This document shows positions 377-22,830 of a stretch of 22,830 bases of DNA, piece after piece. Origin of the DNA: a virus; UHGV virus genome UHGV-0089399. One strand, written 5' to 3'. The translations under genes and the position numbers were made by a program. The notes under the pieces are model-generated. The model saw only the letters and a program-made list of their open reading frames with translations, was not told where the DNA came from and made no database searches. Each line of letters opens with the position of its first letter. Within the stretch, counting starts at the first letter, position 1.

Positions 377-686
377 CGGTTACCTTCTCCACTTTCACAG
401 AACATAACGGCACCTCGCTGTCGGATGCTTTTGCTCTTTGGGATTATCAAAGCGGCAGATATTCTTTCATCTTAAATTTTACGTCTTTGTCCTGACTGAT
501 GTTTATCCTGTTTGGCTGCGAAATAAATATAAAATTAATACATATGTTTTAATGATGTATTTTTATAAATTATTTTCCACATGAATTTTAATAAATTTAA
601 TCTATTCCTTAATACGCAATACATTTACTTTCCTCTTTTGATGATCTTAAATGTCTTATTTTTCGTAATGTGTATAACAAGGAATA

Positions 687-1205
687 GTGATGAAATTTAA
701 AAAATGTCTTCTGCCTGTGGTAATGTTAGCGTCATTCACTCTGGCAGGATGCCAGTCAAATGCTGATGATCATGCCGCCGATGTTTATCAAACCGATCAA
801 CTGAATACCAAACAAGAAACTAAAACCGTTAATATTATTTCCATTCTTCCCGCAAAAGTTGCCGTAGACAACTCCCAAAATAAACGAAACGCACAAGCCT
901 TCGGCGCGCTTATTGGTGCAGTCGCTGGCGGTGTTATTGGCCACAACGTCGGGTCTGGCAGCAATTCCGGAACGACGGCAGGTGCAGTTGGCGGCGGAGC
1001 TGTTGGCGCGGCAGCGGGTTCTATGGTGAATGATAAAACCTTAGTGGAAGGTGTTTCTCTAACGTATAAGGAAGGCACCAAAGTGTATACCTCCACCCAG
1101 GTGGGTAAAGAGTGCCAGTTTACGACAGGTTTAGCCGTTGTTATTACCACGACGTATAACGAAACGCGTATTCAGCCAAATACCAAATGTCCTGAAAAGA
1201 GCTAA
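687..1205 (+). CDS. yfgH: Outer-membrane lipoprotein with glycine-zipper region, YfgH-like
   Basis: Signal peptide followed by lipobox L-A-G-C (MMKFKKCLLPVVMLASFTLAGC). Gly/Ala-rich glycine-zipper segment (GALIGAVAGGVIGHNVGSG...GAVGGGAVGAAAG). 172 aa; the ATG at 690 is an alternative start. Confidence 0.8.
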   Translation: MMKFKKCLLPVVMLASFTLAGCQSNADDHAADVYQTDQLNTKQETKTVNIISILPAKVAVDNSQNKRNAQAFGALIGAVAGGVIGHNVGSGSNSGTTAGAVGGGAVGAAAGSMVNDKTLVEGVSLTYKEGTKVYTSTQVGKECQFTTGLAVVITTTYNETRIQPNTKCPEKS

Positions 1206-1220
1206 TAATCAGGAGGAGTC

Positions 1221-1760
1221 ATGAAGAAAGTTTTTCTTTGCGCCATCTTAGCTTCCTTAAGCTATCCGGCTATCGCCTCATCATTGCAGGATCAACTCTC
1301 TGCTGTCGCAGAAGCGGAACAGCAAGGTAAAAATGAAGAGCAAAGGCAGCATGACGAATGGGTCGCGGAGCGCAACAGGGAAATCCAGCAAGAGAAGCAA
1401 CGTCGCGCAAACGCCCAGGCCGCCGCTAACAAAAGAGCGACAACGGCAGCGGCAAATAAGAAAGCTCGTCAGGATAAACTGGACGCCGAAGCCTCTGCGG
1501 ACAAAAAACGCGATCAAAGTTATCAAGATGAGCTACGCAGCTTAGAGATTCAGAAACAAAAACTGGCGCTGGCGAAAGAAGAAGCCCGCGTTAAGCGAGA
1601 AAACGAATTTATCGATCAGGAACTGAAGCACAAAGCTGCGCAAACCGATGTGGTGCAATCTGAAGCTGACGCAAACAGGAATATGACTGAGGGCGGTCGA
1701 GATCTGATGAAAAGCGTGGGCAAAGCAGAAGAGAACAAATCGGACAGCTGGTTTAATTAA
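1221..1760 (+). CDS. yfgI: Secreted charged coiled-coil protein, YfgI-like
   Basis: AGGAGG ribosome-binding site 6 nt upstream of the ATG. N-terminal signal peptide (MKKVFLCAILASLSYPAIASS), then a highly charged K/E/R/Q-rich helical region. 179 aa, matching the remembered size of YfgI. Confidence 0.75.
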   Translation: MKKVFLCAILASLSYPAIASSLQDQLSAVAEAEQQGKNEEQRQHDEWVAERNREIQQEKQRRANAQAAANKRATTAAANKKARQDKLDAEASADKKRDQSYQDELRSLEIQKQKLALAKEEARVKRENEFIDQELKHKAAQTDVVQSEADANRNMTEGGRDLMKSVGKAEENKSDSWFN

Positions 1761-1799
1761 TCGATGTAAGTAACTTCAAGCCTATAATTCTTGAAGATA

Positions 1800-1831
1800 A
1801 AAAACCCTCTGTAGTAACAGAGGGTTTTGTT
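1800..1831. terminator. Bidirectional rho-independent terminator after yfgI
   Basis: Stem CCCTCTG (1805-1811) / CAGAGGG (1818-1824) with loop tagtaa. Flanked by an A-tract upstream and a T-tract (ttttgtt) downstream. Confidence 0.7.
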
Positions 1832-1854
1832 CATTCATAGTGCAGGGATCAAAA

Positions 1855-1872
1855 TCATTCCCACTCAATTAT
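1855..1872 (-). other. Remnant of the guaA 3' end (I-E-W-E-stop); candidate prophage/chromosome junction (att core region)
   Basis: The minus strand reads ATT GAG TGG GAA TGA (IEWE-stop), the C-terminus of GMP synthase as I recall it. It lies where convergent guaA is expected next to yfgI, but the reading frame closes after 5 codons and no guaA body follows. Confidence 0.4.
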
Positions 1873-1956
1873 TTACGGATACCATAACCAATTGATTGAT
1901 AACAACTTTCTGCAACATGATTTTCACCGTACCGTTTTATATACCGTCACCGGAAA

Positions 1957-2454
1957 TCAGTGCCACGATTTTTGCTTCTTCAGTGAATCGTATTGCTGTT
2001 CGCAGGATTCTCCTGCAATCCGATACTTTTCAGCCTCAGCTGCTGTTGCGTTGTAAACTCGATTGCTTTCTTCAAGCATGTCGGCGAGCACACCGATGAC
2101 CTTGCTGGCTGGCGTGCCAGTGGGGAAAGATCCGGTATAGTGTTCGGCGAGTCGCTTGGTTTTGTCAAGCTCGGCGCGCAGGCTGTCAGCAGCGGCATTA
2201 GCATGCTCAGCATCAACACGCGCCACATCGATACGGGATTGTGCTTCACGTTCAATTTGTGTTTTCTCCTGATCACGTTGTGACCTGGCCTTATCATCAG
2301 CCTGTTTCTGATCTTCCTGTGCCTGCGCATACCCGGCATCGTACTGGCGGCTGCCGTGCATATTCCAGGCAACCACTCCGACGATGAACAGAGCAGCAAG
2401 CATCAACACGATAAGCAACTGTTTCCAGTATGCTTTTACGAATGCCCAGATCAT
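1957..2454 (-). CDS. i-spanin (Rz-like lysis protein)
   Basis: 165 aa with an N-terminal transmembrane helix ([18 protein letters not shown]) followed by a charged coiled-coil periplasmic domain. Its ATG overlaps the endolysin stop (ATGA). Last gene of the lysis cassette. Confidence 0.75.
1980..2228 (-). CDS. o-spanin (Rz1-like lipoprotein) embedded in the +1 frame of the i-spanin gene
   Basis: Alternative-frame ORF wholly inside the Rz-like gene. Encodes [17 protein letters not shown] with lipobox L-T-A-C, followed by a Pro-rich short periplasmic segment ([19 protein letters not shown]). ATG confirmed at 2228; a later ATG at 2213 is an alternative start. Confidence 0.55.
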   Translation of the reverse strand: MWRVLMLSMLMPLLTACAPSLTKPSDSPNTIPDLSPLARQPARSSVCSPTCLKKAIEFTTQQQLRLKSIGLQENPANSNTIH

Positions 2455-3080
2455 ACCGCCAGCACATTACTGGCAGTGATGTACCGCGCTCTCCGGTCGT
2501 CGATGCCGTTCCTGCCACCATTGATAATCAAAGTTACACGAGCAATATCGCCGGTATACTTCATGCAACCTTTGCTGGAGAAGAACCACGCCGCGCTACG
2601 AGCCGCATATTCGTCCTGCGCTAACAGTTCAGGATTCTCCAGCAGGTCCACTTTCAGGCCGTTTCCGCAGTCACGATAGTTATTCAAACCGGTAATCTGG
2701 ATAAGTCCACGGCCTCGGTAATTCCAGCCGTCACCAGGGGAATTGTTCCCCATGCGTTTGCTGTACACCAGATTGGCGATCGCTCGCTGGCGCTCGAGTG
2801 GCAATGGTGGTTCACCAGCACGGCGACCCAGTGCATTAGCCTGCCCCTGAGTGAGACGCCCAGCCCGAACGAAGTTAGCCAGACCGCTGACACTGTAGTT
2901 GAAATTCTCCTGCAATCTGGTGAAGCCCACAGATTCATGCCCGACCTGAGCAATAAACATTGCCTGATCCTCTGCTTTGCTGATACCAAACTCTTTCATC
3001 GCAGAAGTTATATGCGAGAACCAGCGAGCGGCCAGCGCCTCTCTAATACCAGCAGCTCGCTGGAATTGTTTAATCTCCAT
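2451..3080 (-). CDS. Endolysin, glycoside hydrolase family 19 (chitinase-like lysozyme)
   Basis: 209 aa with GH19-like motifs (QVGHESVGF ... [16 protein letters not shown]). Sits between the holin-like genes and the spanins, with overlapping start and stop codons. Confidence 0.8.
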
Positions 3081-3378
3081 GTTTAGACCTCGTTATTTTG
3101 AAAATCTGAACGACGTTACCGCGCGTTTTAATAACCGCAGCAAGCATGACAGCGTTGATAATGACCTCAGATAAATCCACAGCCATTGGCGTGCGTAACC
3201 AGATTGCATAAACGACACGAACAGGAATACTGGCCGCAGCAACAATCAGGAAATAAGCAATCCACCCACCCCATCTTCGGTGTTGAGATCCGTTACGCTG
3301 GAAAGTGACAACGCGAATTGCTATGCCAGTACAAATAACTGCATTGGTGATAAGTAAAAACAGGTCATGCGTTACCAT
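3070..3378 (-). CDS. Holin/antiholin-like small membrane protein
   Basis: 102 aa with 2-3 predicted transmembrane segments and a charged C-terminus. Overlaps the endolysin start by 11 nt and the upstream membrane-protein gene by 14 nt. Confidence 0.5.
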
Positions 3379-3781
3379 CGTCTTTTCTCCCCGGAATTAA
3401 CTCGCGTGGATTATCGGAACGGTGATAGAGCCAGATACCAATTCGCACTGCGACAATTGCTGATACGAATGCGCCAGCAGAGAAAACAATCCCTTTCTCG
3501 AACGAGTCCTGCGTGATGGTAGGGATCAGGCTGGCTATGCCGATAAGAATTGATGCTGCTGGTTTGTAAAAAAGAAGGCCGCAGAGAAAGCTGAGCATCG
3601 ACAAGAATACGCGACGACGAATTGGATACTCTACCGCAGAGGTAACAAAAATTACCGCACCAGCAAGAGCACCGAGCGCCACCTCTGGCGGAACACCTAC
3701 GATAACCGCAGCAAGAGAGCTCACACTAAGCCATTGATTTAAAGACTCAGTTGTTATGTTAACCGACATAGCACACACCAT
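3365..3781 (-). CDS. Holin-like membrane protein
   Basis: 138 aa with several hydrophobic helices and a charged C-terminal tail ([18 protein letters not shown]). First gene of the lysis cassette. Two in-frame ATGs 4 codons apart (MVCAM). Confidence 0.5.
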   Translation of the reverse strand: MVCAMSVNITTESLNQWLSVSSLAAVIVGVPPEVALGALAGAVIFVTSAVEYPIRRRVFLSMLSFLCGLLFYKPAASILIGIASLIPTITQDSFEKGIVFSAGAFVSAIVAVRIGIWLYHRSDNPRELIPGRKDDGNA

Positions 3782-3944
3782 TTTTTTTGTACATATCGAA
3801 CCTCTTCACTTACAGGTCACCAAACACAATAAACCATATATGTTTAACCATCAGGTATTCTGAAATAACTATCAATTCATTGGTTTTTGATGACAATATT
3901 CATAAACAACCATAAATGTAAGGATGTTTATTAGTTGCCAAAAT

Positions 3945-6551
3945 TTATTTCCTGCAAACTCCAGATGATGTTAATCCATCAAAAATAACCTGCACTCTGG
4001 CAATAACAACATCAACTCCAGAAGTCGTTTCACTTGCATAACCAAGTTTTATTTTAGATACAATATCCTGAGTAAGTTCAGATATTTCAGTTTCTGCAAT
4101 GTTACCAGAGGCCATGTGATTATCGTATGCCATAGAATGAATTCCATTATTGACATCGATTGAACTAGTATGTTTGTGAAAAATAGATGGGTTTACCTGA
4201 AACGAATTTGAACCGATAAGATCAGAAGATACTCCATTCATCACTGCAGTACAGCGTGGAATATTATTATCGGTTATTGTCATATGCAGACGGTTACCAG
4301 TTAACCCCTCACCAAGTGTGACATAATACGCCAATTCTCCACCTGCATATTGTTTCCCCTCAACAATAACAGTAATCCCTCTTAATTTCTGATTAGCTAG
4401 CAAAAACTTATTACTGTCTATATAGCATTTATTTGCGGAACCAAAAACAGCCCCTTCTAAAATATCTGATGAATAGGAATAAATAAGGTCACCAGAAACA
4501 AAGGAAAGAATATCAGATACGTTTCCTTTTTTAGATAAGTTGGGAGAATAGCTATTAACTATTTCATATTGTCCTGTGATAAAATCAAGGTAAACGCCAT
4601 CAGTTTTCATCTCTTTAAAGAAAATGCTATTAAAGCATCCATCAAGAACCGGTGGATATATTCTAGAGCTTGCATAAGCTGTTGGGTGATTCTTATTATT
4701 ACCACTACCAGGCGAATAAACATCTTCGTTAGTCATTGACTTTTTAAGCTTAACAGGAATCATCGGCTGCATATCAATTTTGCAGTTCCCTGAACCACCG
4801 ATGCGAGGATAAAATAAACCACCAAACCTTACAATATTACTACTGAATAGTATTTCGTTATCGTTAAGTGTTATCTCAACGAAGTTTCCAATAAGTTTAA
4901 ATTCAACTGAAAACAAACCAAGTGGAGCAGATAATTTAACAATATTGCGCATAAAAACACCTACAGTCCCTGTTGATGCAGTATAGTGTGTGGTTTCAAA
5001 GGCAGAGCCTGTATATTTCAAGTTAATGAAATTATTATGGTATGAAGACAATTGGAATTGAATCCCAGAACTAAGGATTTCAATATCTACAAATTGAATC
5101 CTTACGGAGTAAGAATATGATAAATCTTCATATTCATAAGGCAATGTAACATCTTTTGAAATAGTTGCCCTCACATAATTACCAGAAACCACATCAACCC
5201 CATCACGTACTGCATTAAAGTAACGATTAAAATCAATAAGCCCAGCGCCAACATACTGCGCATATGAACGAGTCCATCCTGCCATTGCGTTTCGTCCATT
5301 CTGAGCTTCTAAACTGCTAAATTCAGAGTCACTTGTGGTACTTGATGGGAGGATATTTGTACAAAAAACAATTTCAGGCATTGAAGTAATATCATTCAGT
5401 TCAGCCATCAATTTAAAAAAAGTTTTCTGCGGGAAGTTACCAACATCCCAACCATCTCCGTCATTCATGCCAAAAGCAATAATAACAACATCAGGGTTAA
5501 TATCACGAATGTAATCAATCCAGCGTCTGTTCGTGTCTGAATACCATGGGTACTGTGAGTTATAAGAAGTAATTGCTGGTGTATCTTTTCCAAGGTCATA
5601 GTACCTCATTCCACCAATTGCTCTGTTAAATAAAGTAGAACTTGGGAATTTCTCTTGCAAAACTCTCTTAAGATGAGCGGCAAAAATGCTTGATCGATCC
5701 ACTGTGCTTATATTATATGGGGCACTTAAGCTGTCACCAACTAACACTATTTTTGAGTTAGGCCTTGATAATCTCTCAAGTGTTTTAGATGTGACTAAAC
5801 TGCAGGAATTAATGAACTGAGTACTATTTAGCGTCTGTTCAAGTGTATCACCAAATCTGGTACCAACGTATGATGATCCGTTGACACTTGCTAGCTTAAG
5901 GCATAAATCAGCAGTATCTGTAATTGAAAAAATAGGAACAGGACGTCCTAAACTGTCATACCCCTGAATTGAGTTTGCCCTAGAAGATGCTGATGCCATT
6001 TCGCTTACTATCTCAGGGAAGCGGAGTGTTTTAGATATGTTGCTGTTAATAACTCCTTTGATAGATGAGTCTGTATATTTCTTCGTGGAAGCGTCCTGAG
6101 GAAATAATGGATCATCAAGGTTACGAATACGATTGCCGAGTGCATCGTAGTAAGTGGCACTAAATGATGGTTTACGAAGAGCCAGCCGAGCCATGCTTTT
6201 GACTAACTGGATCAGCATCGTTAGCTTATCAAAAGCATCCTCATGCACTTCCGCAAAGAACTTACCCTGATTGCGCAGATCAGTTTCCTGTGTAACCGGT
6301 AGCTCTCGTGATATAGAAATCTTATAGCCATTGGCCAACGCCTTCGACAATATTACATTTCCACCATTGTATCCTCCGGCCCCGGTAACTATATAATCAG
6401 TATCAAGAGTCAGTACGGTGATATTTTCATGAATATCAACAACCTGCACAATCAAATCAGATTTATTGAAAACCCTAAAGGCATACGGAAACGATGTCGT
6501 AACGCCGTTACCGGTGTATTCGTTGTGGTCAACTTCGGTTGAGACCGTCAT
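3945..6551 (-). CDS. Tail fiber/tailspike with T7 gp17-like N-terminal anchor and SGNH/GDSL hydrolase (esterase-like) domain
   Basis: 868 aa. N-terminus (EYTGNGVTTSFPYAFRVF...LTLDTDYIV) resembles the conserved T7 tail-fiber N-terminal domain. Central GDS block (VLVGDSLSAPY), a conserved Gly block and a GxND block (VVIIAFGMNDG) are typical of SGNH hydrolases. GGAG ribosome-binding site upstream. Confidence 0.8.
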   Translation of the reverse strand: MTVSTEVDHNEYTGNGVTTSFPYAFRVFNKSDLIVQVVDIHENITVLTLDTDYIVTGAGGYNGGNVILSKALANGYKISISRELPVTQETDLRNQGKFFAEVHEDAFDKLTMLIQLVKSMARLALRKPSFSATYYDALGNRIRNLDDPLFPQDASTKKYTDSSIKGVINSNISKTLRFPEIVSEMASASSRANSIQGYDSLGRPVPIFSITDTADLCLKLASVNGSSYVGTRFGDTLEQTLNSTQFINSCSLVTSKTLERLSRPNSKIVLVGDSLSAPYNISTVDRSSIFAAHLKRVLQEKFPSSTLFNRAIGGMRYYDLGKDTPAITSYNSQYPWYSDTNRRWIDYIRDINPDVVIIAFGMNDGDGWDVGNFPQKTFFKLMAELNDITSMPEIVFCTNILPSSTTSDSEFSSLEAQNGRNAMAGWTRSYAQYVGAGLIDFNRYFNAVRDGVDVVSGNYVRATISKDVTLPYEYEDLSYSYSVRIQFVDIEILSSGIQFQLSSYHNNFINLKYTGSAFETTHYTASTGTVGVFMRNIVKLSAPLGLFSVEFKLIGNFVEITLNDNEILFSSNIVRFGGLFYPRIGGSGNCKIDMQPMIPVKLKKSMTNEDVYSPGSGNNKNHPTAYASSRIYPPVLDGCFNSIFFKEMKTDGVYLDFITGQYEIVNSYSPNLSKKGNVSDILSFVSGDLIYSYSSDILEGAVFGSANKCYIDSNKFLLANQKLRGITVIVEGKQYAGGELAYYVTLGEGLTGNRLHMTITDNNIPRCTAVMNGVSSDLIGSNSFQVNPSIFHKHTSSIDVNNGIHSMAYDNHMASGNIAETEISELTQDIVSKIKLGYASETTSGVDVVIARVQVIFDGLTSSGVCRK

Positions 6552-7066: not shown

Positions 7067-7143
7067 TCTTGTGCCATAGTAATCGGGCACTGGCAAAATC
7101 CGGTGCCGGGATTGGTCTCCCGGATTACTACAGAGGCACATAT

Positions 7144-7164
7144 GCCGCATAAGCGGTTTTTTTT
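7144..7164 (+). terminator. Weak intrinsic terminator/attenuator-like hairpin with U8 tract
   Basis: Short stem CCGC-ataa-GCGG followed by tttttttt, between the small ORF and the Bro-N gene. The stem is short, so function is uncertain. Confidence 0.35.
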
Positions 7165-7318
7165 ATGTGTAAAGCGCACCTATTCTATGGTGGGCTGTGT
7201 GGGGGCACCGAAAGGTGCGCCGGGTTCCTTTGTAGCCGGTAAGACCAACTCTGCACAGTTCACCACCATCTGATTGGTCTCAGCGGTGGTGATTAACCTA
7301 ACTACAAAGGTGATCGCC

Positions 7319-8011
7319 ATGAATACCAAACCTTCCATCTTTTCCTTTGAGTCATCCTGCCAGATCCGTATGTTCATGATTGACGGAGAACCTTGGTTTG
7401 TCACCAAAGATGTGTGCAATGCTTTGAATATTGATGTTACACAAGCGAGAAAACTTGATAAAAAAGGCTGGAACAAAAAGGGGCTGTATTCAATACAGAC
7501 CCCTGGTGGAATACAAGAACTATCCATCGTTTCAGAATCAGGTCTCTACATCCTTATTCTGCGTTGCAAAGAGGCAATGACTGAGGGAACGAGAGCATTC
7601 AGATTTCTTGAATGGGTTACAGGCGAGGTTCTTCCTCAGATCCGCCGCACCGGAAGTTACATTAAAAACTCGCTACCGCAGGAAGAACGCATAAAGATGG
7701 TTGCCGACCAGGTAGCCAACGCCACGGCGTCAGCAGTAATGCAGGCGATGAAGATAGAGAACAAAACCTACAACGCCCCGCTGAAGCCCGGCTACCGCAG
7801 CCTGATTCATTCCCCGTCTGGTGTTCTCGGCCTGACGGAGAACTCACTGCTGATGAATCTGCTGAACCAGTTACAGGAAGACGGGCACGACGTATCGGGC
7901 GCGGCGGCGGAGCTGACCACCATGTTCTGCTACATCGTCGGTGTGAGCAAATGCCTGCGTGATATCCAGACGCACGCGGAGTACATCAACGACAAAGCAG
8001 GGTTCTTCTGA
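7319..8011 (+). CDS. Bro-N domain protein (phage antirepressor-like)
   Basis: N-terminal region (FSFESSCQIRMFMIDGEPWFVTKDVCNALN...ESGLYILILRCKEAMTEGTRAFRFLEWVTGEVLPQIRRTGSY) matches the Bro-N/KilA-N-type domain pattern. AGGTGA ribosome-binding site upstream of the ATG at 7319; the track ORF begins earlier at a non-ATG codon. Confidence 0.8.
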   Translation: MNTKPSIFSFESSCQIRMFMIDGEPWFVTKDVCNALNIDVTQARKLDKKGWNKKGLYSIQTPGGIQELSIVSESGLYILILRCKEAMTEGTRAFRFLEWVTGEVLPQIRRTGSYIKNSLPQEERIKMVADQVANATASAVMQAMKIENKTYNAPLKPGYRSLIHSPSGVLGLTENSLLMNLLNQLQEDGHDVSGAAAELTTMFCYIVGVSKCLRDIQTHAEYINDKAGFF

Positions 8012-8140: not shown

Positions 8141-8467
8141 ATGACAAAACTTGGATTCGTGATGAGAGGTCCGGTAAGAAGCGGAACTCATGCAAAGCGT
8201 AGCAAGAGTCGTATTTTTACTGGTAAGGTTGTAGCACGTAAATCAGCTATTGGCTCGTTCAATAGTGAAAATGCGGCATTGCGCCATATTTTTATCAGCA
8301 CAAAGCCAAGAGCATCCGCTGATGTGCATACAATGACTATTCCTATCACAAAGAATATAAAGCGGATAAAAAAGCTCTCATCTGCAGAATCAAAAGAGAT
8401 ATCTTTCCGCCAGCTTAACTCATTAGAAACGCATATGAAGGAAGAGGAATTCGATGTTTTTGAGTGA
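8141..8467 (+). CDS. Hypothetical basic protein (108 aa), first gene of a coupled pair
   Basis: GGAG ribosome-binding site 8 nt upstream. Lys/Arg-rich N-terminus. The 3' end overlaps the next gene by 14 nt. AT-rich relative to flanking DNA. No motif I recognise. Confidence 0.5.
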   Translation: MTKLGFVMRGPVRSGTHAKRSKSRIFTGKVVARKSAIGSFNSENAALRHIFISTKPRASADVHTMTIPITKNIKRIKKLSSAESKEISFRQLNSLETHMKEEEFDVFE

Positions 8468-8966
8468 GTATAGCGGGAAGGTTATACCTACTGGTGAGTT
8501 TAAAACTGATGACTTTCTGATTTCGCTAAAAGATGCTTTTAAACAACACTGGCGTCATGGTCATCATCCTGATCTGGGAAAAGATACTCTTTTTGAAAGA
8601 CCAGACGAAGTATTAGGTTTCCATCTCAGAAAGGTTCATGTCAATATTGGTGAATATGCATCATATTCATACTCATGTACTGAACAGTGTTGGGATGAGT
8701 GGTCATATGGATTGATTGATGAACAAGGAAATTACAGGCCAAAACCAACCAGTAACGCATATCTCATATATGCAGTCAATGAAATAAGAGATGCAGCCTT
8801 ACTAGCTTATTGGGACCCGCCCGCACACACCAAAGCTAACGCAAAAGTTTGGATGGATTCCGTATTGAATTTCACAAAATTATTTCATGAACGAACGAAT
8901 ACAGCTCCACTTAGTAGAAATGTTTATCCGTGGGATTATTCGTACAAATCCAAAAAGCCTGCATAG
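8454..8966 (+). CDS. Hypothetical protein (170 aa), second gene of a coupled pair
   Basis: GAGG ribosome-binding site inside the upstream gene; start overlaps the upstream stop region. Contains a His-rich stretch (WRHGHHPD). No recognisable family. Confidence 0.5.
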   Translation: MFLSEYSGKVIPTGEFKTDDFLISLKDAFKQHWRHGHHPDLGKDTLFERPDEVLGFHLRKVHVNIGEYASYSYSCTEQCWDEWSYGLIDEQGNYRPKPTSNAYLIYAVNEIRDAALLAYWDPPAHTKANAKVWMDSVLNFTKLFHERTNTAPLSRNVYPWDYSYKSKKPA

Positions 8967-17534: not shown

Positions 17535-20005
17535 CAGAATCCCCCAACAGTAAGGCGAGGAATAACTGCAAGAACAGACAGCGGCAACGGATCAAGCTGA
17601 CGGATTTTTACACGTCCGTTTTTGCCCCAGTTACTGTCCAGTTTCACTTCTACTTTTCCGGTAGCATCATCAACAGGATCATCGTAGAACTCGAATTCAC
17701 GCTGTGGATATTCGTACCATTTACCGCCGGGCGTAGTCGCCCAGATGCCGCGACTGGCATTCACAACCAGAGTAACGGACGGGATCACCTGTTTTTTGTC
17801 CAGCAGCGTTTCCTGTCCGTTAATGTTGATATCCAGTGTTTCGAATTCAGCAGTTATTGGCAGGCCGATGTGCACTACAGCCCCCGGAGATTCCAGCGTG
17901 ACGGCACCTCCGGAAACCACTTTCTGTGGTTCCACGTTCGCATCAGAGAGGATGTTTACGGTCTGGCCTTCAAGATGAGACAAGCCGCCAAATGTCCGGC
18001 GCGCCATCTGCCAGTTCGTGGTGGCCACATTCCTGAGGGATGGCGGGACGTTCCTGTTAGCACGAACCACTACAGCGGTATTGCTGGTTACAGAAATAAT
18101 GTCGCAACGTAATTCTTTTGACACTTCATCGCCAATATCAGGAACAGTTCCGGCATAAGGGAACTGTAGTTGCGCGCCGACATCACTACTGGTGAAGTAC
18201 GCACCACCAGAAATACTGATTGTATATTCCGCGCGGTAATCCCATTCACCAGAACCACCAGTGATGGTCATCGTTCTGTCAGACGTATTTCTTCCATCAT
18301 AGCTAAGGCCAGAATCAACAAAGAAAGCATCTTCATCGCTGGTAAATAAACGGCTGGACAGTCGCTCTATGTATCTCACTGTTTGCCCGTTAACGGTTCG
18401 GTTAACGACGAAATACACCGCATCTTCATTGCCTTCGCTGATACTGCATGTGCTTTCATATTTCCCGGTACTGGATTGTGGTGCCCATGCAAAAACCTGC
18501 TGATCACGCAAATAGGTCATCACCAGTAATTTACCGTCATCACGAATGCAGAAGGCGCTGGAGTAAGGGACAATCGAGAAGCACCAGTCAACAATGCTGT
18601 GCTTCTGAAAAAGATGATTGGCAAGGATGGTCAGGTCGTTCCCCTGATAGCCGTCAACATCGAATGAGTAGGCCAGATCACGGACAACACTGCCTTTCTC
18701 CTGGACGAACAGAGCAATATTCGCCACGGCAATTGGTGGGACATTGCTCGAGCCATTTGATCCCTGAGAGCTGAATGCAAATGATGATGGGGTTAACACT
18801 TTGTTCTGGTCGCCGGTGATGACGTACTCACCTCCGGAAGTCAGCGCCACCAGCGAACCAACATCAATCAGGTGACGGATCTCATTAACCTGACGCCCGG
18901 CATAGGTGTAGATAATTCTGTCGTCATCCTGCGTAGGATTGCTTTTGCCAAAATCCTTATAATCCCCGGTACGGCTGGCCCAGATAGTCTGAGGGAACGC
19001 AGTCGATGCGGCGAAGTAAAGACGTTGTTGATAATAAACAACAGTGCCAGGATAACCATTAACTCTGTTCCAGGCATATTTAGCCCATTTATAGCTGGCA
19101 TTATCCTCGCCAACGACCTGCGAAGGGATATAGGAAATCACCTGGGCAGTTGCAGTAGTGCCATTTGCAACAGTGATACGGGCAATGCCAAAACCACTGT
19201 GCAGATATTCCCACTCAATGCCAGTATCATCATCTCCGGATCCGCCCCAGCCATCCCATGATGTGCCTTCTGTATGCGAAGGGCGCAAAGTGCCTGTTTT
19301 ACCTGCCGTAACAGCACGATAGTAGTTACTGTCTGCACGGCGAATATCGCCAATCGACGTACTCTTACTGGTTTCCCATACCGGTACTGAATCCACTGCT
19401 GGCTGTTCCAGATAGAACAATTTGCCTACCTGTTCCGCGCCAAAAATAGAGGCGTTTGCCGTTAACGTAATTGTCCCGGTGCTGGCGCTGGCATAAACCG
19501 TCACTGACTCGTCAATATTGATATCTTCAAATGGCCCGTTCTTCGTTACCACATCAACCAGTTGCCAGTTGTCATGCGCATAGCGGCGCAACTCTTTCGG
19601 CGGGTATGCCGGGTGAACCAGCGTAAGCACGTCGGCGCTTTGCGTGAATTTAATTCGGAACAGATCGGCTTCAGTATATGGCGTGGCAATTTCATAAATA
19701 ACATTGCTGCTGTTCAGCACCAACGCACCATCTTTGATAACGCGCATGTACTGGTGTCCGAACTCCAGAGCATAGGTCTGAACCGTCGAGAACTGGAACG
19801 GGATCAGACGGCATTTCCGATTTGGGTATTTGGCGGCACCGACAAAACGCGTACCAGGTCGATTCTCAACGCCGCCATACTGCCGCACGATAAAATTATC
19901 GCACTTGCGCAATGCCACCTGGTACTTCGCCATGTCGATACGTCCGAACAACGACGGTCCAATCTCACCACCGGCAAAGCTGGGCTGGATCCAACTGATA
20001 GCCAT
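17534..20005 (-). CDS. Tail tubular protein B, gp12-like
   Basis: 823 aa (T7 gp12 is about 794 aa). N-terminus MAISWIQPSFAGGEIGP...ENRPGTRF resembles the gp12 N-terminal pattern. Immediately downstream of the gp11-like gene with overlapping codons. Confidence 0.65.
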   Translation of the reverse strand: MAISWIQPSFAGGEIGPSLFGRIDMAKYQVALRKCDNFIVRQYGGVENRPGTRFVGAAKYPNRKCRLIPFQFSTVQTYALEFGHQYMRVIKDGALVLNSSNVIYEIATPYTEADLFRIKFTQSADVLTLVHPAYPPKELRRYAHDNWQLVDVVTKNGPFEDINIDESVTVYASASTGTITLTANASIFGAEQVGKLFYLEQPAVDSVPVWETSKSTSIGDIRRADSNYYRAVTAGKTGTLRPSHTEGTSWDGWGGSGDDDTGIEWEYLHSGFGIARITVANGTTATAQVISYIPSQVVGEDNASYKWAKYAWNRVNGYPGTVVYYQQRLYFAASTAFPQTIWASRTGDYKDFGKSNPTQDDDRIIYTYAGRQVNEIRHLIDVGSLVALTSGGEYVITGDQNKVLTPSSFAFSSQGSNGSSNVPPIAVANIALFVQEKGSVVRDLAYSFDVDGYQGNDLTILANHLFQKHSIVDWCFSIVPYSSAFCIRDDGKLLVMTYLRDQQVFAWAPQSSTGKYESTCSISEGNEDAVYFVVNRTVNGQTVRYIERLSSRLFTSDEDAFFVDSGLSYDGRNTSDRTMTITGGSGEWDYRAEYTISISGGAYFTSSDVGAQLQFPYAGTVPDIGDEVSKELRCDIISVTSNTAVVVRANRNVPPSLRNVATTNWQMARRTFGGLSHLEGQTVNILSDANVEPQKVVSGGAVTLESPGAVVHIGLPITAEFETLDININGQETLLDKKQVIPSVTLVVNASRGIWATTPGGKWYEYPQREFEFYDDPVDDATGKVEVKLDSNWGKNGRVKIRQLDPLPLSVLAVIPRLTVGGF

Positions 20006-20613
20006 CAGGACAACCTCGCAATGGTAAACTCATCAACCGGTGGCTGTGGTTCCTGTGATTCATTCTGGCTATGCGAGCCAGCACTAAGAATCACGCGATT
20101 GTACATATTGAGGGCAAACGTACCGAGGTCTGCATTCCCAGTCAGCGCCATGTTAATAGCTGCCGCAAGACGCCAGGCCAACGCCTCCATAAAAATGGCA
20201 TCAAACATGTTCACATCTGTAACGCGAGAGACATACTTGAGCCATGCCTGAGGCTGGTCTGTGTAGATCAACTTTCCTGTTCCGTTGGTGTCTGCACCAA
20301 CTTCGTACTGAACGCGCATTGATGCTGTTGGATTGCGTACACCAGGAAGCATAATTTCAGTAATGCGCAGACAATCTGACGGGTACTGGTACGCATATTC
20401 CCAGTCAGGCGGTGGATTGCTCGTATCTGCAAGCGCCACGCGTTTGGTAGCAAAGTTCCAGTCAAAATCAGAAAGCACAGCATCACGGCAGGCCTCAAAG
20501 TGCAGCGAACATTCCCCCGCTTCCTTGCTGGCTTCCGTCAGGCTGTTAATGCTGCGGCTGTTGCCAATATTGGACAGCGCACGATTGCAGATCTCTACTA
20601 CAGAGGCCATCAC
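20005..20613 (-). CDS. Tail tubular protein A, gp11-like
   Basis: About 200 aa. N-terminus (ICNRALSNIGNSRSINSLTE) resembles T7 gp11 (VNDILASIGEPPVSTLE) as recalled. GGAGGTGA ribosome-binding site upstream. Size and order match the T7 tail module. Confidence 0.65.
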   Translation of the reverse strand: MMASVVEICNRALSNIGNSRSINSLTEASKEAGECSLHFEACRDAVLSDFDWNFATKRVALADTSNPPPDWEYAYQYPSDCLRITEIMLPGVRNPTASMRVQYEVGADTNGTGKLIYTDQPQAWLKYVSRVTDVNMFDAIFMEALAWRLAAAINMALTGNADLGTFALNMYNRVILSAGSHSQNESQEPQPPVDEFTIARLS

Positions 20614-20933
20614 TCACCTCCGTTACCGTACAGAGTTTCAGCCGCTGATTTTTCTACATCCCCGGAAACAGGAGCGATCGCCATATCAGTGATCTGCAGA
20701 TCGGCGCTGCGATTAACGCCATCGTCAGTTTCTCTGGCAGACAGGCCTCGAATAACAGCCTTTGCAGTTATCATCACTTCTGTTCCGACGCCCTGAGGTT
20801 GCGCCTTCAGCTTATTCAATGTGTCGTTATTCAGCGTGATGCACAGCCCCCACGGGTATTCATCGCGAGTTCTGGTTTCTCCGCTCTCATCCTGGTAGCT
20901 GTCAGTGCCGGTTTTGAGGTTTACGAGTTCCAT
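20610..20933 (-). CDS. Hypothetical protein (107 aa), translationally coupled to the gp11-like gene
   Basis: Start MELVNLK at 20933, preceded by a GGAG ribosome-binding site and a GC hairpin. Stop overlaps the gp11-like start. The track ORF extends further upstream into the ArdC gene end and is probably too long. Confidence 0.4.
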   Translation of the reverse strand: MELVNLKTGTDSYQDESGETRTRDEYPWGLCITLNNDTLNKLKAQPQGVGTEVMITAKAVIRGLSARETDDGVNRSADLQITDMAIAPVSGDVEKSAAETLYGNGGE

Positions 20934-20950
20934 ATACACTCCTGCAATAA

Positions 20951-20966
20951 AGGGGCCGAAGCCCCT
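20951..20966 (-). terminator. GC-rich hairpin (AGGGGC-ttcg-GCCCCT) at the 3' end of the ArdC-like gene
   Basis: Perfect 6-bp stem with a UUCG-type loop, followed on the minus strand by TTATTG. Overlaps the ArdC-like stop codon. Confidence 0.4.
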
Positions 20967-21960
20967 ACCCTGCAATGTCATCAGGTTGGGTGTCGCCGAA
21001 TAGCTGCGCATCGAGACGTTCGCCGATGAACCGCACGACCTGACGCACATCGCTCAGAACCGAGAAGATGAATGCAGGTTCCGCGCGGATCTTCTCCAGC
21101 CAGCCTTTCAAGTAGGCGACGTTCTCTGAACGGATGCCGCTCGAAATCCCGAGGCCGCAACCGGCCAGAGCTGCCGAAAATTCAGCGACCAGCTCCTCGC
21201 GGCCGTAAGCCTGACGCGACCGATCCTCGAAGTGCCGGTCCAGACGGTCGGCAGTACCCGTCGAATGGCTCATCTCGTGAAGAAGCGTGGAATAAAATGC
21301 CTCCAGATCGGAGAACTGCTCTTTGAGAGGCACGACGATAATATCGTCCGCCGGAGAGTAGGACGCCCGGTCGCCGACCTTCAGGCGGATCGGACAGACC
21401 CAGGATTGCGCCTCGAGCATACGCTCGAGAGTCGGATGCGCCGTGCCTGCGGGACGCCGGGGATGAGCCTGCCGGTCGAAGATCTGCTGCCAACGCTGCG
21501 GATACCGTTCGGCAAAGTCCGTTTGGTCGAGATTCAGTACCGGGTAAAAACGCAAGCTGAACCGCAGCACATACTCCTTGCGCTCGGATTCGGAAAGATT
21601 TTTGAAATCCTCTACCGAAAGATAGCGGGGTTTGCCTTCAACCGGAGTGGCGGCCAGGTAAAAGGGCTTCCAGAAAATCACCGGAAATTGTTTCGAGCCC
21701 TTGCGGACCTGCAAACCGAGTTCTTTGGCCTGCTTAAAGGTGACGAATACAGGGCTCTGGTAGCCCTTAACCTCCGTAAGCATAAGCAACGTCAGAATGT
21801 TCGCGCCGGTATAATTCCTCCCGGAGACAATGTTGTAGGGAAGAACGCCCTGTCCGAAGATCCACGGCTTCTGCCAGGATTCGGTCATGGACTCGATCTT
21901 GGCGATCATCAATTCTGCGAAATGCGAAGAGACTTTCTCGAGAACATCAGAATGTGACAT
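20965..21960 (-). CDS. ArdC-like antirestriction protein (ssDNA-binding N-domain plus zincin-like metalloprotease C-domain)
   Basis: 331 aa. C-terminal metalloprotease motif LLHEMSHSTGTADRLDR (HExxH followed by TG...RL.R), characteristic of the ArdC family. GC-rich coding sequence unlike the neighbouring phage genes. Confidence 0.7.
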   Translation of the reverse strand: MSHSDVLEKVSSHFAELMIAKIESMTESWQKPWIFGQGVLPYNIVSGRNYTGANILTLLMLTEVKGYQSPVFVTFKQAKELGLQVRKGSKQFPVIFWKPFYLAATPVEGKPRYLSVEDFKNLSESERKEYVLRFSLRFYPVLNLDQTDFAERYPQRWQQIFDRQAHPRRPAGTAHPTLERMLEAQSWVCPIRLKVGDRASYSPADDIIVVPLKEQFSDLEAFYSTLLHEMSHSTGTADRLDRHFEDRSRQAYGREELVAEFSAALAGCGLGISSGIRSENVAYLKGWLEKIRAEPAFIFSVLSDVRQVVRFIGERLDAQLFGDTQPDDIAG

Positions 21961-22421
21961 AACGTAAATGCAGACTTTATCCTCCTGCGCCGGAGTTCTA
22001 AACTGCCTGAAACGCTCAGAACAGCGATGCAGACTCAGCCGATCCGGGCGACTGCTTCAAAGGCAAGGACCCGGAAGGAAATATTTGCCGTCGAGACATC
22101 GACGGGCGCAGCGGACAAATATTTCCGAATCGGGCCAGGCGGCCAGCCTAACCAGGCTGGACGATCCTTGCCGCTGTCGAACGGATGTCGGCTAACTTTG
22201 CATCCATGTTGTGAGTGGAAATACCGCTCTCCCCCGGATGACGAGTTCGCTTGTCGATCGCGGTCGTCCGCGAGCTGAGCCCGGCGGCATAGTCGCCGGG
22301 AGCTGCAAGTTCAGGGGGCCCGAAGGTCGTGCGACAGGATCGGAGATCCGCACGGCGAGATAGCCGGTGGTCAACCGGCAACCGGCTATGGCCGGGTCCG
22401 ATGAATTTCTATGTGATGAAT

Positions 22422-22448
22422 CACAAAAAAAGAGGGGCTTAGCCCCTC
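22422..22448 (-). terminator. Rho-independent terminator
   Basis: Stem GAGGGGC-tta-GCCCCTC (22432-22448), followed on the minus strand by TTTTTTTGTG. Lies just downstream of the stop of the 22454-22825 ORF. Confidence 0.6.
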
Positions 22449-22453
22449 CTCCA

Positions 22454-22825
22454 TCATCCAATGATGTGGATTTCTCCGGAAATCCCGAGTTCACGAAGGT
22501 TGCGAAGCAGGCGGCCGAGATGTTTAGCCTCCTGCTCCTTCGCATTGGAACCAGGCGTATCGAGCCAGGTGTTGATGTCTGACTTGTAATTGTCGGTCCG
22601 TTCGACAAGATCATCGATAACATTCACCAGGTTGTCTAAATACACCTCCGGAACACGGTTCGTCTCGGTTCCGGAATCATCCAGAAGGCGGACTTCGAAA
22701 AGATCCAGACCCTCGTCGTAGAGCACAGCGACCCAGCCTTTGTGCTTGAAACCACTGACATGGAACCAAAGGCCCTCCATATCATCCCTACGATACGGAG
22801 CCCGTTTCTCCAAGCCCCACGACAT
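22454..22825 (-). CDS. Hypothetical acidic protein (123 aa as seen; may extend beyond the window edge)
   Basis: Open frame reaching the last codons of the window, ended by a clear terminator. No recognisable motif. GC-rich. Confidence 0.35.
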   Translation of the reverse strand: MSWGLEKRAPYRRDDMEGLWFHVSGFKHKGWVAVLYDEGLDLFEVRLLDDSGTETNRVPEVYLDNLVNVIDDLVERTDNYKSDINTWLDTPGSNAKEQEAKHLGRLLRNLRELGISGEIHIIG

Positions 22826-22830
22826 CTGAA

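Follow-up and report, generated by a model that had tools for sequence, protein, structure and literature searches.

The attL junction of a phiV10/epsilon15-type prophage at the 3' end of guaA in Escherichia coli

P4, P22 and many genomic islands residing at tRNA genes enter the target gene at its 3' end and bring a replacement 3' end with them. The 3' flank of guaA is reported to be targeted by the tyrosine recombinases (integrases) of the epsilon15 cluster (PMC8138268), and a phiV10-like phage has been noted at guaA in an O103:H25 outbreak strain (PMC3293862). In the case of phage vB_EcoP_ZX5, attB, attL and attR have been amplified by PCR and Sanger-sequenced; the attP/attB core, attgagtgggaatgatt, falls within the guaA 3' end, at a distance of 190 bp on the 5' side of the integrase gene, and the same core sequence constitutes the attP of phiV10 and epsilon15 (PMC9782041). 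Earlier publications accordingly cover the attachment site together with its 17-bp core and the integrase family, and these have been experimentally verified in sister phages. For the prophage described here we delimit the repeat and its breakpoints, reconstruct attP, show that guaA is intact and identify the integrase. An apparent exchange of terminators and a set of conserved GACGGTAT repeats are modest additions to the known system.

The analysed DNA, a stretch of 22,830 nucleotides from the UHGV virus genome UHGV-0089399 which is designated the window in the following, is 100% identical to the chromosome of E. coli 50579417 (NZ_CP033884.1), window position p corresponding to record position 632847 + p. 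The last host gene before the junction is yfgI (DUF5384; 1221 to 1760, plus strand), as indicated by the ORF list and by the RefSeq annotations of NZ_CP033884.1 and K-12. Positions 1870 to 22830 comprise the left ~21 kb of a 40.3-kb Uetakevirus prophage, as revealed by megablast and by annotation of the full element, according to which the prophage runs past the end of the window and on to the integrase gene and attR. The part within the window harbours lysis genes, a tailspike gene, accessory genes as well as tail, core and head genes. Its megablast matches to phages phiv142-3, HEMP4, phiV10 and the O157 typing phages 9 and 10 amount to 69-71% coverage at 96-97% identity, with weaker matches (75-77%) to epsilon15-like Salmonella phages. 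According to its phage record, phiV10 belongs to the genus Uetakevirus. We regard it as virtually certain that window positions 1853 to 1869 represent the attL core of an integrated temperate podovirus of the phiV10/epsilon15 type (genus Uetakevirus) at guaA.

Two further features of the element lie remote from the junction. The megablast matches to phiV10-type phages end at window position 20966, where the major capsid gene region begins, so that the head module (20965 to 22830) seems to be mosaic with respect to the closest relatives. Beyond the window, a tRNA-Arg gene is located in the prophage between the portal and terminase modules, at positions 3987-4063 of the attR-side locus of the same chromosome (NZ_CP033884.1; outside the window and referred to as L003).

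Of the two direct repeats that bound the prophage, the left one is the attL copy of the core; it consists of the 17 bp AATCATTCCCACTCAAT at 1853 to 1869 and, when reverse-complemented, matches the published core exactly. It spans the last four codons of guaA, the stop codon and the two following nucleotides. On the minus strand, positions 1855 to 1869 read ATT GAG TGG GAA TGA, which translates to I-E-W-E-stop and constitutes a dead copy of the gene's last four codons and stop codon. A preliminary description of this DNA had taken the minus-strand I-E-W-E-stop following the yfgI terminator for the C-terminus of GMP synthase, and it is, in fact, the same as the end of K-12 guaA and of the strain's own guaA (...KPPATIEWE-stop). 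The description had, moreover, sought the att core within 1855 to 1880, which comes close, although the real core, made up of four codons, the stop codon and two nucleotides, occupies 1853 to 1869. The collapse of the frame and the subsequent onset of phage lysis genes, both likewise noted before, are borne out by a TAA at 1873-1875, which closes the IEWE frame two codons upstream and leaves five open sense codons (I-I-E-W-E), and by Pfam matches to a spanin, an endolysin and two holins.

The left boundary of the prophage is fixed exactly, position 1870 being the first phage-specific base. An alignment with K-12 shows identity through ...AATCATTCCCACTCAAT and full divergence from 1870 onwards, while the phage matches in the megablast search with 1870 to 22830 begin at position 1 of the query. 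The empty site of the near-identical strain RIVM_C019217 agrees with the window at every base from yfgI up to and including 1869, the local GGGATCAAAATC variant among them. In addition, window positions 1500 to 2300 were compared as a host-boundary query with 5426 complete E. coli genomes. Matches were obtained in 5417 of these and, among the matches listed, most stop at query position 370, equivalent to window position 1869; a query coverage of 80% or more, extending into the phage lysis gene, is attained by only 184 genomes. Alignment with the prophage-free yfgI-guaA region, be it of K-12, of RIVM_C019217 or of thousands of genomes, identifies the IEWE segment as the true 3' end of guaA together with the downstream spacer, in accordance with its earlier assignment to this gene. 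The phage P' arm of attL extends from the first phage base, where host homology has ended at 1869, to the stop codon of the spanin gene (1870 to 1956) and is colinear with the attP region of phiV10 (alignment of window positions 1870-1975). An Rfam scan of the whole window revealed no structured RNA in 1760-1957.

At the other end of the element, L003 shows the gene order tyrosine integrase (18520-19776, minus strand), guaA (19969-21546, minus strand) and guaB. The sequence AATCATTCCCACTCAAT is present once in the window and once in L003 (19967-19983), the spacing of the two copies being 40,266 bp. The second copy is situated 190 bp from the start codon of the integrase gene and forms the end, four codons plus the stop codon, of an intact guaA of 1578 nt (525 aa, no internal stop) that differs from its K-12 counterpart by one amino acid. 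Hence, as anticipated in the preliminary description, the phage is integrated at the 3' end of guaA with a replacement end at the opposite junction, and the same 17-bp repeat recurs there next to the integrase gene and an intact guaA; the gene is not disrupted by the prophage. The full-length integrase shares 99% identity with the phiV10 enzyme. Its Pfam domains, PF00589 Phage_integrase (6e-19), PF22022 Phage_int_M and PF13356 Arm-DNA-bind_3 (4e-20), fit the heterobivalent tyrosine integrases (lambda/P4-type; epsilon15 cluster of IntSXT), which possess a catalytic and an N-terminal arm-binding domain.

The phiV10 genome contains the 17-mer once, between the genes of the Rz-like spanin and the integrase. 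Its attP corresponds to the left, integrase-side arm of attR, followed by the core and by the right arm of attL (window positions 1870-1956), and three- and four-way alignments show all 17 bases to be identical in attL, attR, K-12 attB and phiV10 attP. attP and attB do not differ anywhere in the core, which makes the window copy a hybrid formed by recombination. A short copy of the guaA end, 15 nt in length, is thus present as claimed before, but it is not simply a displaced piece of bacterial DNA. Because the two cores are identical, the crossover point is not readable from the sequence; it would be located somewhere inside the 17 bp.

The P4-like tyrosine integrase of the phage, equipped with an N-terminal arm-binding domain, has most probably recombined the phage attP with the bacterial attB. 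From established knowledge of lambda/P4-type integrases we infer that Int would bind core-type sites around a short overlap region within the 17 bp and that its N-terminal domain would bind arm-type sites. Strand exchange within the shared core splits the site into attL and attR. At attR, the complete guaA reading frame is followed by phage DNA with a new intrinsic terminator and by the integrase gene; at attL, the dead 15-nt guaA end has the native yfgI/guaA terminator on one side and, on the other, the P' arm with the lysis cassette.

Flanking direct repeats are a signature of transposition as well, and the two copies found here are perfect. Nevertheless, we rejected a target-site duplication caused by a transposase-type insertion, the probability of which is negligible, because phiV10 itself has the 17-mer: its single occurrence in the free phage, flanked by the same arms, implies that the repeat is carried by the phage and does not originate from duplication of the target. 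Furthermore, the element has a gene for a tyrosine integrase, its annotation includes no transposase, and the same insertion site is used in many genera. Likewise, five codons on their own make a short match, and I-E-W-E-stop might be regarded as a chance resemblance or as what a deletion or rearrangement of guaA, independent of the phage, has left behind. Yet the match is part of a continuous yfgI-guaA intergenic homology of ~370 bp which ends exactly at the core, and shuffled windows contain on average 0.12 matches to the 17-mer even if three mismatches are allowed. On the grounds of the continuous homology and of the shuffle control a chance match was rejected and, given that guaA is intact at the far end, we consider either version of this explanation extremely improbable.

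Many E. coli prophages are cryptic, and the present one could accordingly be defective, its attL being a fossil relic no longer able to recombine. Several findings render this rather unlikely, although less so than the two explanations above. Both cores are perfect and the integrase is, as stated, full length and nearly identical to that of an active phage. With 40.3 kb the element compares to the 39.1 kb of phiV10, and its annotation flags no pseudogenes and presents complete lysis, tail, head, replication and immunity modules. This particular prophage can presumably still excise; even if it were defective, however, the origin of the junction would be unchanged.

The genes adjoining the P' arm form the lysis cassette, all of them on the minus strand. 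Its last gene (1957 to 2454) encodes an Rz-like i-spanin (DUF2514; Pfam PF10721, E = 1e-25) whose phiV10 counterpart, p30, is annotated as Rz-like spanin. Embedded in this gene is an ORF for a 91-aa Rz1-like o-spanin lipoprotein (1980 to 2255, minus strand), identified by translation and by comparison with p30a of phiV10, which also comprises 91 aa and a lipobox. The start codon of the embedded ORF is TTG, located 9 nt behind an AGGAG motif, and its product carries the lipobox LLTAC; the RefSeq annotation of NZ_CP033884.1 omits this ORF. The cassette further includes a GH19 endolysin (2451 to 3080; Pfam PF00182, RefSeq) and two holins (3070-3378 and 3365-3781, together 3070 to 3781; Pfam PF05449 and PF16931).

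Downstream in the window, the protein in tailspike position (868 aa, 3945-6551, minus strand) possesses an SGNH/GDSL esterase domain at residues 268-447, which suggests that this tailspike may deacetylate its receptor instead of acting as a glycosidase. The region encoding it is only partly shared with phiV10. On the plus strand, Rfam matches to isrK (7087-7163, 73.7 bits) and to C4 antisense RNA (7183-7270, 78.6 bits) lie directly upstream of a BRO-N anti-repressor ORF (7274-8011). By analogy to P1/P7, this arrangement looks like ImmI-style antisense control of the anti-repressor in a podovirus prophage. Two overlapping plus-strand ORFs, 8141-8467 and 8454-8966, occupy the accessory region where phiV10 has an O-acetyltransferase gene. 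The second one is annotated in RefSeq as a YafO-family toxin, with a Pfam score of 19.7 bits that stays below the cutoff of 25; the two ORFs possibly constitute a toxin-antitoxin gene pair.

A motif search yielded a candidate arm-type integrase site, ATACCGTCAC, of which a perfect copy is located in the P' arm at window positions 1941-1950. With at most one mismatch, nine copies are present in L003 compared to 1.4 expected. Five of the nine cluster beside attR (19255-19842), four of them being perfect. As three of these five lie inside the coding region of the integrase, the role of the clustered copies as arm sites is uncertain. The ATACCGTCAC repeats look like arm-type Int-binding sites. The copies in the 5' coding region of the integrase gene are three in number and perfect (L003 19255-19607), and two of the copies within the gene, 90 bp apart, are contained in a 13-nt repeat, TGATACCGTCACG; they may serve as extra arm-type or as autoregulatory Int sites. 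The motifs GACGGTAT and ATACCGTC recur in the P arms of homologous elements from other genera.

A further structural element of the junction is the native hairpin terminator common to the convergent genes yfgI and guaA, located by a terminator scan and RNAfold at 1801 to 1828. It consists of 12 pairs, is rich in GC, carries T-rich tails and is the same in strains with an empty site; RNAfold calculates -17.8 and -18.6 kcal/mol for the two strands. Read on the minus strand, it comprises the stem and TTTTTTATCTT and is, in the lysogen, situated 3' of the phage lysis operon instead of guaA. The P arm of the phage harbours a hairpin, too, which is labelled a rho-independent terminator in the phiV10 annotation. 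On the guaA strand it starts 46 nt past the guaA stop codon, its stem being followed by TTTTTGTTTTT. Alignment of the phage hairpin AAAAACCCTCTGCAAAAACAGAGGGTT with the native hairpin AAAAACCCTCTGTAGTAACAGAGGGTT reveals 24 identical positions out of 27, and the score of this alignment was reached by none of 2000 shuffles. Since the arm terminator of the phage is identical to the native one to this extent, integration swaps the two terminators. After integration the phage hairpin would terminate guaA, while the lysis operon would run into the native guaA hairpin. In this regard the replacement 3' end of guaA proposed in the preliminary description was conceived too narrowly: the last codons are indeed supplied by the phage, but the terminator is replaced as well.

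A terminator-like hairpin is present 42-47 nt past the guaA stop codon in all 15 element-side junctions examined, comprising those of this prophage, of phiV10, of the M8 and EC42405 islands and of ten loci of other taxa. Enterobacterial elements of the phage type have one and the same stem, to which the stems of the other elements are unrelated. We tentatively put forward, leaning slightly towards doubt, that element and host may reciprocally exchange terminators upon integration at guaA, an arrangement upheld by selection, that attP may derive from a guaA 3' end acquired along with its terminator, and that all elements of this integrase cluster might be obliged to bring one. If this holds true, the terminator of the element would protect the expression of guaA and insulate the integrase gene. 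A literature search for an earlier mention of such a terminator swap returned none, but only unrelated Gram-positive papers.

The 3' end of guaA turns out to be a busy integration hotspot. The uninterrupted 301-bp attB region is found in 4463 of the 5426 complete E. coli genomes, leaving 963 (~18%) without it. The attL type, defined by a match to window positions 1845-1960, occurs in 545 genomes (~10% of complete E. coli). Phages of this type also vary; one variant, for instance, has an extra HNH endonuclease beside attL. Cargo unrelated to the phage occupies the site as well. In E. coli M8, an integrase 52% identical to that of the prophage is found at the same core together with a terminator of its own, and the integrase homologues of Chromobacterium, Aquitalea and a Burkholderiales MAG are likewise located at the guaA core with their own terminators. 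Homologues of 52-90% identity with enough upstream sequence were compared in nine other taxa (genomes and one MAG): Pseudocitrobacter, two Citrobacter species, Kluyvera, Superficieibacter, Scandinavium, Klebsiella, Chromobacterium, Aquitalea and the Burkholderiales MAG. In all of them the integrase gene lies 189-294 bp downstream of a guaA ending in IEWE-stop, and a core-like 17-mer is present.

E. coli EC42405 contains a 3.4-kb island between yfgI and guaA (580-4030 of locus L006) without a complete integrase gene, which encodes an AAA ATPase, an integrase-core fragment and a response regulator. Its guaA ends in GAG TAG as opposed to GAA TGA and shows synonymous changes just inside the gene, making this a case with a visibly different guaA 3' end supplied by the element. 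Narrowing down the crossover by means of this island was abandoned because its guaA differs at synonymous sites beyond the core, too. For this reason the EC42405 element probably recombines elsewhere and is uninformative with regard to the overlap region of the phiV10-type phages.

Compared to its closest described relatives, the prophage shares with phiV10, vB_EcoP_ZX5 and epsilon15 the 17-bp core and its distance of 190 bp from the integrase start, with phiV10 an integrase of 99% identity and colinear P and P' arms, and with the phiV10-like phages lysis and tail modules of 96-97% identity. Unlike in the phiV10-type system, its tailspike is a different one which includes the SGNH/GDSL esterase domain. 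The accessory region encodes a BRO-N anti-repressor and a YafO-like toxin where that of phiV10 encodes an O-acetyltransferase, and the major capsid gene has no megablast-level match to phiV10-type phages. None of these differences touches the att site. As in P4, P22 and the islands at tRNA genes, the core overlaps the 3' end of the target, the gene remains intact and the opposite junction retains a short, dead duplicate; unlike in those cases, the target is the protein-coding guaA and the duplicate comprises only four codons and the stop codon. With the guaA elements of the epsilon15 cluster (IntSXT subgroup; e.g. CMGI-3, PMC8138268) the prophage has the same target flank in common. In contrast, the cargo of the other guaA-targeting elements consists of islands, whereas here it is a podovirus, and the sequences of arms and terminators differ.
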